The position numbers and the translations under genes are program-made. A stretch of DNA of 63,995 nt, the filler included, from Malassezia furfur (taxonomy: Eukaryota), in assembly GCA_052055015.1 (NCBI GenBank). It is 15 parts of 15 records of this genome, joined end to end, with 100 filler letters (N's around TTAATTAATTAA, not from the genome) between each part and the next. Parts side by side here need not be neighbours in the genome. Positions count along the whole stretch, not along the records: positions 61,109 to 63,995 come from JBQJIT010000836.1; 14 more parts are not named here. One strand, given 5' to 3'. This document shows, piece after piece, positions 52,528 to 63,995 of this stretch; positions within the stretch are counted from its first letter, which is position 1; every line of letters starts with the position of its first letter. Under the pieces are notes generated by a model. The model was not told where the DNA came from and ran no database searches. It saw only the letters and a program-made list of their open reading frames with translations.

Positions 52528-55455
52528 GGCGCGGCCGGCGACCCGCTCGCGGGCGTCGCGCCGGTGCGCCCCGTGCTGAAGCGCGACGCGGCGGACGCGG
52601 AGGTGAAGCCGTTCAACCTCGCGACGCTGCAGGAGTCGCTCGCGATCATGCAGGACGCGCGCACGCGCGTGCCGGACGTGTACGAGCGGCAGCGGTGGCT
52701 CGAGCACTCGGCGCTGGATGCGGCGCGCAAGCGGCTGCAGCACGACCAGGCGAAGCTCGAGGAGCTCGGGCTGAGCGCGGGCGCGCTGCAGTCCAAGACG
52801 CTGCAGGCGTGGATGTGGGAGTGGTACCAGCGGCTGGAGGCGGCGCTGGCGCGCGACCTCGAGGCGCTGCGTGCGCAGAGCGAGGCGGGCGACACGTCGA
52901 TGGAGGCGCAGCTGTACCCGTTCCTGAGCCTGCTGCCGCCGTCGAAGCTCGCGATGATCGCGGTGCTGGAGCTGATGCGCATGCAGGGCGTCGGGGGCGT
53001 CGCGGACGGCGTCAAGACGACGCGCGCGCTGCTGCAGGTCGGCAAGGCGATCGAGGCGGAGCACCACGCGGCGGTGATCAGCCGGCACCCCGAGGTGTTT
53101 GTGCAGGCGCGCGCGGCGCAGGGCCTGCTGAAGGACCGCAACCTGGTGAACCTGGCGATGCGGCGCGACCTCAAGGCGTGGCAGGAGCGCTGCGACGAGG
53201 ACGCGCTCGAGACGCACGTGCCCAAGTGGACGCAGATGGTGCGCGTGCGTGTCGGGAGCTACCTCGTGCAGCGGCTCATGGACGTCGCCACCGTGCACCG
53301 CTCGGCGCGCGACCGCGACGGCGAGCTGTGGGAGGAGGAGCAGCCCGCGTTCTACGCGACGTACCAGTACATCTCGGGCAAGAAGCTCGGTGTGATCCGG
53401 CTGAACGAGGTCGTGAGCCGCCGCCTCGACAAGGAGTCGGTGCGCGAGACGCTGCACCCGCGGCACCTGCCGATGCTCGTGCCGCCGAAGCCGTGGCTGA
53501 CGCACGACTCGGGCGGGTACTTTTCGGTGAAGACGAGCGCGATGCGGTACAAGGACAGCATCGAGCAGAGCTCGTACCTGCGCGCCGCGTCGGAGAACAA
53601 CGGGCTCGAGGTGGTGCTCGCGGGCCTCGACGTGCTCGGCAACACCGCGTGGAACATCAACCGCGAGGTGTTTGACGTCGTGCTGCAGGTGTGGAACAGC
53701 GGCGAGGCGCTCGCGGACCTGCCCCGCGCCGAGACGCACGAGCCGGAGCCGGAGCGGCCGCCGCCGGACGACATCAAGGCGCGCGGCATCTACCTGCAGC
53801 GCATGCGCCAGTGGAACGCGAACCGCGCGTCGAACCACTCGCAGCGCTGCGACATCAACTACAAGCTCGAGATCGCGCGCAGCTTCCTCGGCGAGCGCTT
53901 CTACTTCCCGCACAACATGGACTTCCGCGGGCGCGCCTACCCGATCCCGCCGCACCTCAACCACATCGGCAACGACCTGTGCCGCGGGCTGCTCAAGTTT
54001 GCGGACGCGAAGCCGCTCGGCCACGTGGGTTTGCGCTGGCTGCGCATCCACCTCGCCAACGTGTTCGGCTACGACAAGGCGTCGTTCGCCGAGCGCGAGC
54101 AGTTCGCCATCGCGCACGAGCGCGAGGTGCGCGACGCCGCCACGCGCCCGCTCGACGGCGCGCGCTGGTGGCTGCGCGCCGACGACCCGTGGCAGTGCCT
54201 CGCCACCTGCATCGAGCTCACCAAGGCGCTCGACCACCCCGCGGGGCCCGAGCACTTCCCGTCGCAGCTCCCGGTGCACCAGGACGGGACGTGCAACGGC
54301 CTGCAGCACTACGCGGCGCTCGGCGGCGACCTGCACGGCGCCAAGCAGGTCAACCTCAGCGAGGGCGAGCGCCCCTCGGACGTCTACAGCGGCGTCGCCG
54401 ACCTCGTCATCTCGCAGCTCGACGAGCGCGCCGCGCAGGGCGACCACTACGCCCAGCTGCTCCAGGGCAAGGTCACGCGCAAGGTCGTCAAGCAGACCGT
54501 CATGACCACCGTGTACGGCGTCACGTTCGTCGGCGCCAAGAACCAGGTGCTCCGCCAGCTCGTCGACCGCGGCGACATCCCGGCCGAGGAGCTGTGGCAC
54601 GCCGCGTCGTACCTCGCCAAGTGCATCATGGGCTGCATCGGCGACCTGTTCAGCGGCGCGAACCTCATCCAGGAGTGGCTCTCGGTGTCCGCGCGCCTCA
54701 TCGCCAAGAGCATCCCCCCGGAGCGCCTCGAGGCCGCCACCAACACCTACAAGCCGCGCGCCAACGCACGCACCGGCGCCGTGCCCCTGTCGCGCCTCGG
54801 CAAGGAGCAGATGACCTCGGTCATCTGGACCACGGCGCTCGGCCTCCCGATCGTCCAGCCGTACCGCAAGGTGAAGAAGCACCAGATCGCCACCGCGATG
54901 CAGTCCGTCTACATCCGCGACCCCAACCAAAACTTCGAGGTGAACCCGAGCAAGCAGTCGAGCGCGTTCCCGCCCAACTTTATCCACTCGCTCGACGCGA
55001 CGCACATGATCCTCACCGCGCTCGAGTGCCAGGCGGCCGGCCTCGTGTTCGCGAGCGTGCACGACTCCTACTGGACGCACGCGTGCGACATCGAGACGAT
55101 GAGCGACGTGATTCGCGACACGTTCGTGCGCCTGCACTCGCAGGACATCCTCGTGCGCCTCCGCAACGAGTTCCTCGAGCGCTACAAGGGCTACAAAATC
55201 CCCGCGTCCTCCCTGACGAAGGCGTCGATGATGCGCTCCGAGCGCGAGCTGCGCGAGGCCGCTGCTGCGCACGACGACGCCGACGTCGATGCGGACGCGG
55301 ATGCGGACGCCGAGGTCGAGCGCAAGCCGCGCCGCCGCCGCACGCCCGGCGACGAGCACAAGTTCTACGACCTCGCCGACGTCCTCCCCCCGATCCCCGA
55401 AAAGGGCAACTTTGATGTGAACGAGATCAAGCGCTCTTTGTACTTCTTTAGCTGA
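52528..55455 (+). CDS. RPO41: Mitochondrial (T7-like) RNA polymerase, 3' part
   Basis: MDFRGRAYP, QDGTCNGLQHY, RKVVKQTVMTTVYG, PPNFIHSLDATH, SVHDSYWTH, YFFS C-terminus. Confidence 0.97.
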   Translation, partial: GAAGDPLAGVAPVRPVLKRDAADAEVKPFNLATLQESLAIMQDARTRVPDVYERQRWLEHSALDAARKRLQHDQAKLEELGLSAGALQSKTLQAWMWEWYQRLEAALARDLEALRAQSEAGDTSMEAQLYPFLSLLPPSKLAMIAVLELMRMQGVGGVADGVKTTRALLQVGKAIEAEHHAAVISRHPEVFVQARAAQGLLKDRNLVNLAMRRDLKAWQERCDEDALETHVPKWTQMVRVRVGSYLVQRLMDVATVHRSARDRDGELWEEEQPAFYATYQYISGKKLGVIRLNEVVSRRLDKESVRETLHPRHLPMLVPPKPWLTHDSGGYFSVKTSAMRYKDSIEQSSYLRAASENNGLEVVLAGLDVLGNTAWNINREVFDVVLQVWNSGEALADLPRAETHEPEPERPPPDDIKARGIYLQRMRQWNANRASNHSQRCDINYKLEIARSFLGERFYFPHNMDFRGRAYPIPPHLNHIGNDLCRGLLKFADAKPLGHVGLRWLRIHLANVFGYDKASFAEREQFAIAHEREVRDAATRPLDGARWWLRADDPWQCLATCIELTKALDHPAGPEHFPSQLPVHQDGTCNGLQHYAALGGDLHGAKQVNLSEGERPSDVYSGVADLVISQLDERAAQGDHYAQLLQGKVTRKVVKQTVMTTVYGVTFVGAKNQVLRQLVDRGDIPAEELWHAASYLAKCIMGCIGDLFSGANLIQEWLSVSARLIAKSIPPERLEAATNTYKPRANARTGAVPLSRLGKEQMTSVIWTTALGLPIVQPYRKVKKHQIATAMQSVYIRDPNQNFEVNPSKQSSAFPPNFIHSLDATHMILTALECQAAGLVFASVHDSYWTHACDIETMSDVIRDTFVRLHSQDILVRLRNEFLERYKGYKIPASSLTKASMMRSERELREAAAAHDDADVDADADADAEVERKPRRRRTPGDEHKFYDLADVLPPIPEKGNFDVNEIKRSLYFFS

Positions 55456-55493
55456 ACGGTAGTCGATCATGTATAGCCACGCCGCCGCCTCTG

Positions 55494-55965
55494 CCGCCGC
55501 CCCGTCGTTGTGTGTGCTCTGAGTGCTGCCGCTCGGTTGTGTGTGTGCACTGTGCGCCGCCACCTCGGTTGTGTGTGCTCCGGGCGCCGCCCCTCGGTTG
55601 TGTGTGCTCGGGTCGCCTGGCGCCGCCCCTCGGTTGTGTGTGCTCTGGTTGCCGCCCCTCGGTTGTGTGTGCTCGGGTCGCCTGGCGCCGCCTCTCGGTT
55701 GTGTGTGGTCTGAGCGCCGCCCCTCGGCTGCGTGTGCACTGGGCACCCGGTGCCTCCCCCTCGGTTATGTGTACTCTGTGCACCTGGCGCCTCCCCCTCG
55801 GTTATGTGTACTCNNNNNNNNNNNNNNNNNNNNNNNNNNNNNNNNNNNNNNNNNNNNNNNNNNNNNNNNNNNNNNNNNNNNNNNNNNNGCCTCCCCCTCG
55901 GTTATGTGTACTCTGTGCACCTGGCGCCTCCCCCTCGGTTATGTGTACTCCGTGCGCCCGGCGCC
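55494..55965. repeat. Minisatellite with a conserved 24-25 nt core (GCCGCCCCTCGGTTGTGTGTGCTC / GCCTCCCCCTCGGTTATGTGTACTC) and 5-12 nt variable linkers; at least 12 units, with an unresolved gap at 55814-55888
   Basis: Directly visible; followed by GCCTC pentamer repeats up to the next ATG. Confidence 0.92.
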
Positions 55966-59919: not shown

Positions 59920-61008
59920 ATGGCACGGCGCGCGGCAGCGGCGCAGGCGACCGTGTTCCGTCATGTATTGCCACAGTACTATCATAGGGTCGTCCCGCTC
60001 CGCGCCTACGTGCAGGCCTGTGCGCCCGACGTGCTGGACGCTGTCGCGCACTGCGACGCGGCACGGGCGCTGCTCGACGGCCTCGTGGGCCTTGTGGCCG
60101 ACGCGCCGCCCGTCGACGGCGACGGCCTCGCGCGGGTCGAGGCCGAGGGCGGCGCATGGCCGCTGCTTGCCGTACGTGGCGCGACTGACCGCAGGCGTTG
60201 CAGCACACGCAGCGCGTCCTCTTCGATGCGCGCCGCACCGACGTCCTGACGCTCGGCTACCGCCGCGACCCGATCGACGGCACCGTCGTGCACACGCATC
60301 CAAATACCGTGCTCACCAGCATCGCGACCAGTCCGGCATGGCACACGCTCGTGCAGCACCTGGGCGTGCGCCGCTTTGTCGAGATGCTGCTCACCACGGC
60401 GTACTTTGCGCCGCTGCCGCACACGCACGACTGCTACGCGCAGCTGTGGGGCGAGCCGGTGGTCGACCGCGTGCCGCACAAAGGGGCCAAGCGGCCCGCC
60501 GACGCGCCCGATGCGCCGGCCAAGCGCGCACGCCGGCGCACGGCGCCGGCGACCTCGGTCGCGTTCCGGCGCACGCGCCTCTTTTCGGCGCGCCCAGCGA
60601 CCGTGTACGGCTACGGCATCGTGCTGGGCCTCCCGCCGCACCACGTCCTCAACACGCAGGGGCCGATGCACCGGCGCACCGCGTGCCTCGCACGCAGCAT
60701 CTTCCCCGGGGAGTTTGCGCCCCGCGGACCTCGATGCGCTCGACGATACCCCCGTAGGCCCCCGTGCCGATCCGCCCGTGCCGGCGAGCACGCAGGCGCC
60801 CGCAGCGCACGACAGTGCGCGTACGCGGGGGCTGCAGCAGCTTGCGCGCGCGCGCAGCCAGGGCGAGCCGCAGTTCTACCGGTACGCGACCCCGCACAGC
60901 CGCGTGGGCTTCTACGTGCGCACGGTGCTGCGCCGCGTCGTGCCGCTCGCGCTCGTCGGCTCGCGCGCCAACCGGCGTGCGGTGTGCCGGGCGGCGGCGC
61001 GCCTCGTC
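59920..61008 (+). CDS. TERT: Telomerase reverse transcriptase, 5' part (TEN domain to start of TRBD), with an apparent frameshift
   Basis: VLTLGY..HPNT..W..L...LG...F..LL..YAQLWGEP (TEN/GQ), IFPGEF, then YATP..VGFYVR..L..VVP...G...N (QFP-like) in another frame; intron 60172-60194. Confidence 0.82.
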
Positions 61009-61123
61009 NNNNNNNNNNNNNNNNNNNNNNNNNNNNNNNNNNNNNNNNNNNNTTAATTAATTAANNNNNNNNNNNNNNNNNNNNNNNNNNNNNNNNNNNN
61101 NNNNNNNNCCCTTCCCCCCTGGC

Positions 61124-62678
61124 ATGGCGTCCATGCTCCAGGGCCGCCTGGACGGCGTCCCGGCATCCGCCGAGGTGCGCGATGCCCAGCTCGTGGTACG
61201 CACCCACACCGATGTCGTCCGCCTCCCCGTCGAGCTCGTGCTGCACACCGCCCTCACCCCCGTACGCGACACGCTCGTCCTCGAGCTCGGTCTTCTTGCG
61301 CCGCGGCCCTCCCCGACGGCCGCACGCGCATGCACCGGCGCACGCGGCACCCGCGGGCCCTACATCCTCACGCGCGCACAGTGGCGCGCACGCGCCGCCG
61401 ACCGCGCAGCGGCGCGCCTGACCCCCGTCACGCTCCGCCTGACGCTCGCGCCGGCACAGGCCGCCGACGCCGACGCCTGGCGCCGCGACGTGCACACGCG
61501 CGCCTTCCCGCAGGAGCGCAAGCGCATCCTCGTCATAGCCAACCCCGTCGGCGGGCAGGGCAACGGGAAACGCGTGCTCGACACGCAGGTCGTCCCGCTG
61601 TTCCGCGCGGCGCACTGTGCGCTGACCGTGTTCGAGACGCGCGGGCGCAGCGACGCGTTCCGCTACGTGCACGCGATGGACGTGCTCGAGTTCGACGCGC
61701 TCGTGTGCGTCGGTGGCGACGGCACGCTGCACGAGATCGTCAACGGCCTCGCGGCACGCACGGATGCCGCCGCGGCGCTCGCGGCGCTCCCGCTCGTGCC
61801 CGTGCCGTGCGGCAGCGGCAACGGCGCCTACGTCAGCCTGCACGGCGCGCACCGCTTCAACGTCGCGCTCGCGTGCCTTAGCGCGCTCAAGGGCGCTACG
61901 CATGCACAGGAGCTGTGCGTCGTGACGCAGGACGCGGCGCTCTTCCGCACGCGGCCCATCTACCCCCTCACGGGCCACGCCCAGGACGGGCGCACCTATG
62001 TCCAGTACTACTCGTTCCTGTCGCAGGCGATCGGGCTCATGGCCGACATCGATCTCGGCACGGAGCGCTTCCGCTTCCTCGGCGACTTGCGCTTCTCGCT
62101 CGGGTACGTCGTCGGCGCGATCCGCAACAAGCGCTGCGACGTGACGATCGACGTCGTGATCGGCGAGCGCGGCACGACAGTCCGTCCCGAGATGCGCCGC
62201 CGCGCGCGCGGCGCCTGTGCCGCTGCGCCTCGATACGCCGCTACCCGCAGGCGACGAGGGCGCATGGCGCCGCGTCGATGAGCCCGTCTCCACGCTGTAT
62301 GGCGGCAAGATGCCCTATGTCGCCCGCTCGCTCATGGCCTTTCCGTACGCGTCGGCGGCGGACGGCGCGATGGAGATCCTGCTGCAGACGCAGTCGTCGT
62401 CGTTCGTGCAGAAGCTCGCGTCCGTCGTCGACGGCGAGCGCGGCGAGCACGTCGAGCACCCCGGCGTGCACTACTTCAAGGTCGAGGCGTTCCGTGTGAC
62501 GCCGCACGTCCCGACGCACGGACACTACCTGAGCATCGACGGCGAGATGGTGCCGTACGGCGCGTTCCAGGTGGAAGTCGCGCCGCTCCGTATGGTGCTT
62601 GCGTCGCTCGACGATGACGAATGGCATGCGCCGATCCTGCATCCGCCCGCGGCGCAGGACGACGTCGCAGCAACGTAG
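61124..62678 (+). CDS. Sphingoid long-chain-base kinase (Lcb4/Lcb5-like), copy 1
   Basis: NPVGGQG, GGDGTLHEIVNG, PCGSGN, DIDLGTERFRFLGDLRF, GKMPY, IDGE; frame change near 62210-62250. Confidence 0.88.
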
Positions 62679-62713
62679 GCGGAGCATTCGCATAGTCACC
62701 GCATCGCGCCGGC

Positions 62714-62792
62714 CGCCGCCGAGCCGCGCGCCGCAGATTGGGCGTGCAGTGCCGGGCGCCGCCGAGCCGCGCGCCGCAGATTGGGCGTGCAG
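62714..62792. repeat. 36-bp direct duplication (period 43) containing ATTGG, between the two kinase genes
   Basis: CGCCGCCGAGCCGCGCGCCGCAGATTGGGCGTGCAG at 62714-62749 and 62757-62792. Confidence 0.9.
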
Positions 62793-62931
62793 GCTGGGCC
62801 GCATCGGGCCGAGGCCGCCGATCCGAGCCAAGATCGCCCTATGCTTGTCCGCGCCGGAAATCTGTGACACCCGCAACACCTACGACACCCGTTGTGACAC
62901 CTCCACTCCGTCCTTCCGACGGACCCTGCGC

Positions 62932-63995
62932 ATGACCTTCGTCGGCACCGTGGACGGCGCGGCGACGCGCCTCGCGCTCACCGACGACGACCAGCTCACG
63001 CTCACCTCGGTCGCACACGGCGTGACGTGGGTCGACGTCCCCGCCGCCCTCGTCCTCGACGCACACTGCGACGCATGCACCGTCACATGGTCCTTCCTGA
63101 GCCCCCGCACGCGGCCGTACCGCGCGGCGCTCGGCCAGCGCGTGTGGCCCACGTACCCGTACACGCACTACCGCCTCGCGCGCGACGCATAGCGCACACG
63201 CGACGCGTCGGCGCTCGCCGCGCCGCTGCACTGCACGACGCTCACCGCCTCGCTCGCGACGCCTGCGGACGCCGAGCGCCTGTGCGCGGCGCTCCTTGCC
63301 GCCGCGTACCCCCATAGTGCCCCGCACCGCCGCGTCCTGGTGGTGTGCAACCCCGTAAGCGGGCGCGGGCGCGGGCGCGCGGCGCTCGACGACGCCGTGC
63401 GCCCCATCCTCCGCGCCGCGGGGTGTGCCGTGGAGGTGGTGCTCCTTGCGCAGCGCTTTGACGCGCTGCGCCAGCTCGCGACGCGCGACCTGCACGCGGT
63501 CGACGCGCTGGTCGTCGTCGGCGGCGACGGCACGATGCACGAGGTGCTCAACGCGCTCGCGGCACGCGCCGACGCCGCCGACGCGCTGCGTACGCCGCTG
63601 GTGCCCGTGCCGGCCGGCAGCGGGAATGCGCTCTACATCAACCTGCACGGCGACGGGCACGGCGCAAGTGCGCCGCTCGCGTGCCTCTCGGCCATCAAGG
63701 GCACGCCGTACGCGCACGAGCTGTGCGTCGTGACGCAGCCCGCGGCGCTCTTTGCCGCGCCGCCCTACCCCCTCGTGCACACCGACGCGCACGGCTCGTA
63801 CGTACAGTACTATGCGTTCCTCTCGGTAGCGCTCGGCGTGCTCGCGGACGTCGACCTCGGCACCGAGTGGATGCGCGCGCTCGGCGACGCGCGCTTCACG
63901 CTCGGCTACCTCGCGGGCATCTGGCGCAACGCGGCGTGCGACGTCGACGTCGACGTGTGCCTCGGCGCCCAGGGCACCGTCGACCGCGCGGCCAC
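62932..63995 (+). CDS. Sphingoid long-chain-base kinase, copy 2, with an in-frame TAG at codon 87 (recoded gene or young pseudogene); 3'-truncated
   Basis: The same frame continues past TAG 63190-63192 into NPVSGRG, GGDGTMHEVLN, PAGSGN and DVDLGTEWMRALGDARF. Confidence 0.8.

Follow-up and report, generated by a model that had tools for sequence, protein, structure and literature searches.

The stretch of DNA that was analysed (the window, 63,995 nt) consists of 15 short contigs of a Malassezia furfur assembly joined by spacers. The assembly is a fragmented draft of 13.68 Mb in 1,856 contigs. Tandem paralogues of an LCB4-type kinase gene, here termed copy 1 and copy 2, occupy positions 61124-63995 in the last contig of the window, G000:C836, and extend onto a separate contig (G000:C849:1-554). 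No tRNA genes were found in the window. The features of the locus are as follows.

61109..63995, no strand assigned: contig G000:C836, 2,887 nt, 72.7% GC, GC rank 5 among the 115 sampled pieces.
61124..62678, + strand: LCB4 kinase gene, copy 1, with 98% identity to both P0032 and P0033 (LCB4 of Malassezia furfur) and a frameshift called.
61382..61384, + strand: TGG, W87 of copy 1, from codon reading.
62207..62213, + strand: junction of a loss of ~80 nt in copy 1, by which P0032 residues 360-385, including the conserved LRYGSVLD, are gone and the frame is shifted.
62932..63995, + strand: codons 1-354 of copy 2, a putative LCB4-type sphingoid long-chain base (sphingosine) kinase; Pfam DAGK_cat at 134-257; 99% identical to the 545-aa P0003; the contig end cuts the gene and the rest lies on G000:C849.
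62932..63189, + strand: 86-codon frame that precedes the stop; it covers the N-terminal beta-rich domain incompletely and contains no kinase motif.
63190..63192, + strand: premature TAG, codon 87, Trp in orthologues, present once in the genome.
63349..63375, + strand: NPVSGRGRG, the first conserved kinase motif, aligned to SphK1 NPRGGKG.
63520..63537, + strand: GGDG motif followed by T201 and M202 (63535), from frame reading and SphK1 alignment.

The assignment of copy 2 as a putative LCB4-type sphingoid long-chain base kinase was made from sequence. The DAGK_cat domain (PF00781) scored 75.5 bits in Pfam against a cut-off of 23.6, and alignment to human SphK1 located the family motifs NPxxGxG, (S/G)GDG-HE, GSGN and D-D-(S/T)E-R-G-RF. 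The nearest Atlas cluster to copy 2 is labelled 'putative sphingosine kinase'. Human SphK1 was the best sequence match of P0003 (E 3e-23), and the model of P0003 (pLDDT 88), which depicts this orthologue and not the window allele, matched 3vzb with an E value of 3.5e-27 and a TM score of 0.81 by target. The LCB4-type orthologue P0003 is predicted accordingly to have the two-domain SphK1 fold. Strands within residues 2-108 and helices at 84-88 and 111-125 compose an N-terminal beta-rich domain (~residues 1-125) in the model, and W87 sits in the short helix 84-88 of this domain. LCB4/5 homologues are described as general in non-flagellated fungi in passages of PMC13161914 that leave Malassezia unmentioned. 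The genes in the window share domain, motifs and fold with the LCB4/LCB5 kinases, but differ in that two tandem paralogues (~46-52% identity) are present, both interrupted in the assembly, whereas loci L008 and L009 of other relatives possess one kinase copy in a different gene neighbourhood. Copy 2 was positioned on a long branch beside the outgroup in a tree that was a quick construction only.

The first-pass annotation identified the in-frame TAG of copy 2 and matched it to a Trp codon of copy 1. Both codons were confirmed, each being codon 87 from its ATG (62932 and 61124, respectively), and the stop column proved to be Trp in 16/16 other homologue rows of a multiple alignment and in at least 90% of 19 rows of a second. 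The correspondence between the two copies rests on these multiple alignments and not on pairwise BLASTP, which aligns the copies only from residue 125, short of codon 87. The shared number is a coincidence because the intervening indels cancel. The frame downstream is open as originally described, with 267 codons between the TAG and the contig end. The C-terminal part of copy 2 was located at C849:6-551, where the remaining ~183 codons (P0003 residues 364-545) also are open with no further stops or frameshifts. Thus, any loss of the gene would be very recent. The next in-frame ATGs after the TAG are at 63535 (M202, directly after GGDGT) and 63871 (M314). Restart at either codon was rejected as the first kinase motifs are lost; a product starting at M202 would be deprived of both NPVSGRGRG and GGDG, in agreement with the earlier assertion that re-initiation gives no enzyme. 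When the 86-residue product was sought as a database cluster of its own, none of seven candidates scored, although a short member could hide inside the P0003 cluster.

A single transition (G-to-A) converts TGG to TAG. From codon use in 214 long ORFs, TGG accounts for 29% of transition routes to TAG and for 5-11% of all single-base nonsense routes, so that a stop in a Trp column is an ordinary outcome and not beyond chance. A 19-nt direct repeat (63170-63188 and 63244-63262, 18/19 identical and 74 nt apart) leaves a single base between its first copy and the TAG codon. As its second copy is not followed by ATAG, the repeat does not explain the A.

The initial suggestion that the TAG be sought in relatives led to the opposite result: the stop is absent from all three copy-2 orthologues (P0003, P0004 and P0047), each of which has Trp. 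As far as these sequences show, the TAG is private to the strain, which goes most of the way to refuting the initial proposal, with W87 present in both the 99%-identical P0003 and the 88%-identical P0004. P0003 (545 aa) represents a cluster of 15 members on three contigs from Logan assemblies, which are DNA- or RNA-derived. It differs from copy 2 at 3/354 positions, W87 among them, and one of the two other differences in these 354 residues is common to P0004. The longest P0003 contig measures 4,663 nt compared to a coding sequence of 1.6 kb, which fits a DNA origin better. P0004 must be genomic because it resides on a contig of 449,468 nt. The longest contig for P0034, the copy-1 protein that matches P0004, also is 449,468 nt, and the tandem kinase pair probably is conserved in the P0004/P0034 lineage. 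P0004 has an off-frame tail after about residue 416, and copy 2 could be decaying repeatedly. P0047, the copy-2 orthologue from another organism, is 49% identical and retains both the Trp and the preceding VW..YPYT..RL..DAW peptide. A metagenome scan that returned 80 loci contained no same-species DNA, but included two close relatives (42% identity) whose loci carry TGG in DNA. The part of copy 2 on C849 differs from P0003 at 9/183 positions, which, by analogy, may reflect mosaic blocks such as those of 4-4.5% divergence described for hybrid M. furfur in passages of PMC9040865.

The source strain is a two-subgenome M. furfur hybrid. A second, homeologous contig at ~83-96% identity was recovered for 10 of the 15 contigs queried by DNA; no homeologous contig emerged in these queries for C687, C692, C696, C836 and C849. 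Passages of PMC9040865 describe hybrid M. furfur genomes of ~14 Mb with parental divergence of ~10% and loss of heterozygosity (LOH) across ~20% of the genome. The homeologous contigs and the assembly size fit with that description: 13.7 Mb in the present case, homeologous contigs ~10% apart and single-copy regions in 5/15 contigs. In contrast, the passages of that study treat LOH, and a word search of them revealed no mention of pseudogenes and no description of the present allele. Protein, DNA and pattern searches of the genome detected no second allele or homeologue of copy 2 or of C849. Elsewhere in the assembly, G000:C732:1-3745 (locus L208) yields identical gene calls on its two strands at matching offsets, with slightly different letters, and looks like an imperfect inverted duplication, whether artefact or real. 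Within the window, a gene at ~59960-61008, taken from its motifs to resemble telomerase reverse transcriptase, carries a frameshift call close to 60720, with the end of the contig ~290 nt away. A tandem-repeat stretch with an internal N gap (~55450-55900) lies just after a long ORF that presumably resembles mitochondrial RNA polymerase.

A total of 644,558 nt (115 pieces, ~4.7% of the genome) was scanned with a coding model and gene HMM. The scan called 353 starts, 417 introns, 12 frameshifts and one internal stop, which is the codon-87 TAG, and homeologous loci totalling 55,454 nt had no internal stops. When the stop was at a natural TGG position, recall was 78/150 (~52%), a value that probably is flattered because the tested ORFs trained the model. 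As one internal stop only was called, the assembly does not suffer from such stops in general. A window scan gave eight candidate stops in ~94,500 testable codons; manual inspection assigned seven of them to positions within or spanning short introns, and the codon-87 TAG was left. There is no family of internal TAGs among the ~353 gene starts at this recall, with zero others found. The genome of F. graminearum has some 13,000 genes, and approximately one other internal TAG would be expected in the present sample at a Fusarium-like rate. The absence of more therefore has low power. TAG is the commonest true stop, ending 120/214 long ORFs. The introns are very short, with a median of 25 nt and most of 21-36 nt (388/417 at most 36 nt); the donor is GTACGT in 249/417, and a branch motif (CTGAC or CTAAC, a few bases before the AG) is found in 402/417.

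Both kinase paralogues are interrupted within contig C836; the break in copy 1 was absent from the first-pass annotation. The ends of the deletion in copy 1 are joined at a short GC overlap (62207-62213). Copy 1 otherwise has eight substitutions in 515 residues, and the other substitutions in the contig are at the between-strain level without excess. The contig end cuts copy 2 in the linker that is homologous to the copy 1 deletion site, and P0033, an NCBI model that is without ~30 residues, departs from P0032 just before the same linker. The irregularities in P0004 and P0033 suggest either that other assemblies contain frame errors or that copy 2 is truly decaying in the sister lineage. The lesions and the irregular database models at a GC-rich locus favor a technical cause for at least the copy 1 deletion. 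No intact kinase of this family was evident in the assembly: copy 1 is broken, copy 2 is stopped and the homeologue was not found.

Overall the codon-87 TAG most likely reflects either a broken allele of ordinary kind, confined to this strain, or a sequencing error; RNA editing is the less likely reading. Editing, stop read-through and very recent pseudogenisation had been put forward at the outset, and the last of these is the best supported, whereas the first two gained no positive support in view of W87 in a 99%-identical orthologue and in a genomic sister-lineage copy, the lack of an internal-TAG family, and a context that is no known read-through signal. On balance, the evidence leans toward the TAG being a private nonsense allele that is recent and strain-specific. 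If the base is real, a strain-private G-to-A nonsense mutation would have arisen recently in one haplotype of the hybrid. Translation would end at codon 87 with the release of an 86-residue fragment devoid of kinase motifs, a product restarted at M202 would be missing GGDG as well as the first kinase motif, and the allele would be null, with no recoding involved. This null allele may be tolerated because the gene would be a dispensable second paralogue and the hybrid may hold another copy. LCB4 is deletable in S. cerevisiae according to the part of PMC11594620 consulted, and its dispensability in the present organism is proposed by analogy with that yeast. However, neither a homeologue of the locus nor one of C849 was found, so that the assembly gives no sign of the supposed backup copy. 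Moreover, the clustering of two lesions and a contig break in one GC-rich contig makes a technical cause simpler than a null allele.

A consensus base error, which was not among the three initial options, comes close behind recent pseudogenisation as a reading of the TAG. The strain then would have TGG and an intact copy 2, with the A miscalled in a poorly covered, GC-rich contig, a possibility that is to be taken seriously even if it is not the favored one. The high GC rank of C836 among the 115 pieces and the division of the assembly into 1,856 contigs are in keeping with such an error, as is the fact that copy 2 breaks off in the linker whose counterpart in copy 1 has lost 80 nt. The departure of P0033 from P0032 just before this linker suggests that there is trouble at this position in another assembly too. 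In addition, one of the 12 frameshift calls falls in the same 2.9-kb contig as the sole internal stop in 645 kb, and a short inverted repeat (63183-63210) includes the TAG codon in one of its arms. PMC3141275 counts inverted repeats among the triggers of Illumina errors, although the platform of this assembly may differ. Nevertheless, DNA of such high GC content is full of short inverted repeats (13 pairs in 201 nt), internal stops otherwise are rare (one in 644,558 nt and none in 55,454 nt of homeologous loci), and the other substitutions in C836 are at the between-strain level. G-to-A changes are more typical of mutation than of Illumina miscalls.

Restorative A-to-I editing has a very low probability. 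The lineage would need to have a fixed UAG in the DNA of a kinase paralogue which is repaired independently of ADAR by a Tad2/Tad3-type deaminase that makes UIG, read as Trp, in some life stage, perhaps in mating or hyphal growth only. P0003 then must be RNA-derived. Editing would restore exactly the conserved Trp, the frame downstream of the TAG is intact, and the Logan origin of P0003 would leave room for it if the assemblies derive from RNA. However, the size of the longest P0003 contig relative to the coding sequence fits DNA better. TAG does not appear to be fixed in the DNA of the species or lineage, as W87 is found in P0004 on its 449-kb contig as well as in P0003, although fixation in one sub-lineage would be conceivable were P0003 RNA-derived. 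The sister-lineage genomic copy opposes the editing scenario. Correctable premature stops usually arise in old genes in the account given in part of PMC10776026, so that Trp in relatives by itself is compatible with editing, and it is the 99%-identical orthologue that carries the argument.

G occupies +1 and +3 of the site and the A is predicted to be unpaired, in line with preferences set out in passages of PMC11156358. Nonetheless, every UAG necessarily has U at -1 and G at +1, 782/1,641 TGG codons have a purine at +3, and 207/293 control TAG triplets likewise have an unpaired A. The A at the TAG is placed in an internal loop and not in the favored hairpin loop, and the fold of the site does not exceed shuffled sequences in stability (z 0.17 to 1.66). 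Editing shows a preference for A or T at the position before the codon; A or T there together with a purine at +3 occurs at only 148/1,641 TGG codons, a point in favor of editing. A second internal TAG was not called among ~353 genes, although the power of that comparison is low. The PF02137 profile had two matches in the genome which probably are a homeologous Tad1 pair.

The closest precedent is the premature-stop-correction gene set of F. graminearum, which comprises PUK1 and 70 others (71 in total) edited by FgTad2-FgTad3 with Ame1, as given in sections of PMC11156358. Copy 2 resembles PUK1-type genes in having an in-frame UAG in a kinase-family gene in which Trp restores the ancestral protein. 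Editing of those genes takes place in the fruiting bodies of the sexual stage in Sordariomycetes (PMC11156358, in part), whereas the present case concerns a basidiomycete yeast whose closest orthologue has Trp and in which the site is known from DNA alone. The same sections confine established editing to the sexual stages of Pezizomycotina and ascribe earlier basidiomycete claims to errors. The Ame1-Tad3 interaction is placed in Sordariomycetes in passages of PMC11087585, where Ame1 is listed in ascomycetes, Agaricomycetes and Chytridiomycetes. Conversely, A-to-I sites were reported in 2026 in the basidiomycete Microbotryum (PMC13608869, in part), and M. furfur mates according to passages of PMC13405305. 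A literature search on A-to-I RNA editing and Malassezia produced nothing on editing in Malassezia as judged by titles and the start of abstracts, and a search on Malassezia and sphingosine kinase produced, among the matches listed and on the same basis, nothing on this locus.

Functional read-through, whereby a near-cognate tRNA would decode the UAG often enough to provide active kinase, similarly is highly improbable. The C after and the A before the stop are both weakly favorable in light of passages of PMC4615788, but the context GCA-TAG-CGCACA is not the leaky CAAUYA treated therein, and C follows 32/120 of the ordinary terminal TAGs of the genome. The other leaky context, UAG-G with downstream structure, does not occur at codon 87. 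Read-through of UAG in yeast inserts Gln, Tyr or Lys and not Trp in the part of PMC4150775 consulted, whereas the column is Trp in 16/16 homologues. Moreover, the stop is conserved in no orthologue that was seen, as all three copy-2 orthologues have Trp. Reassignment of TAG to sense was rejected: TAG at the ends of 120/214 long ORFs excludes it, and the internal case is the only one in 645 kb.

Removal of the stop by an intron, either 63142-63192 or a longer in-frame GT-AG pair, is the least credible explanation: in-frame GT...AG pairs of 51, 111, 135 and 141 nt span the stop, but these lengths contrast with the genome median of 25 nt, the limit of 36 nt for 388/417 introns and the branch motif in 402/417, and P0003, P0004 and P0047 conserve the spanned codons at the protein level. 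The 51-nt interval 63142..63192 (+ strand), considered implausible as an intron from the beginning, was rejected as coding sequence. It scores below all 417 called introns, its donor GTGTGG is found in 0/417, and its peptide VWPTYPYTHYRLARDAW is conserved in the 49%-identical P0047.

As most likely read, the codon-87 TAG represents one broken allele or a base error in a draft genome and is of little import. Were editing true, it would be the first restorative mRNA editing site in Malassezia, in a fungal group where such editing is not established, and long-chain-base phosphate signalling would be gated by life stage. If instead both lesions at the locus are real and there is no other copy, this lipid-dependent skin yeast would include a strain that is naturally null for long-chain-base kinase, which would be of modest interest.
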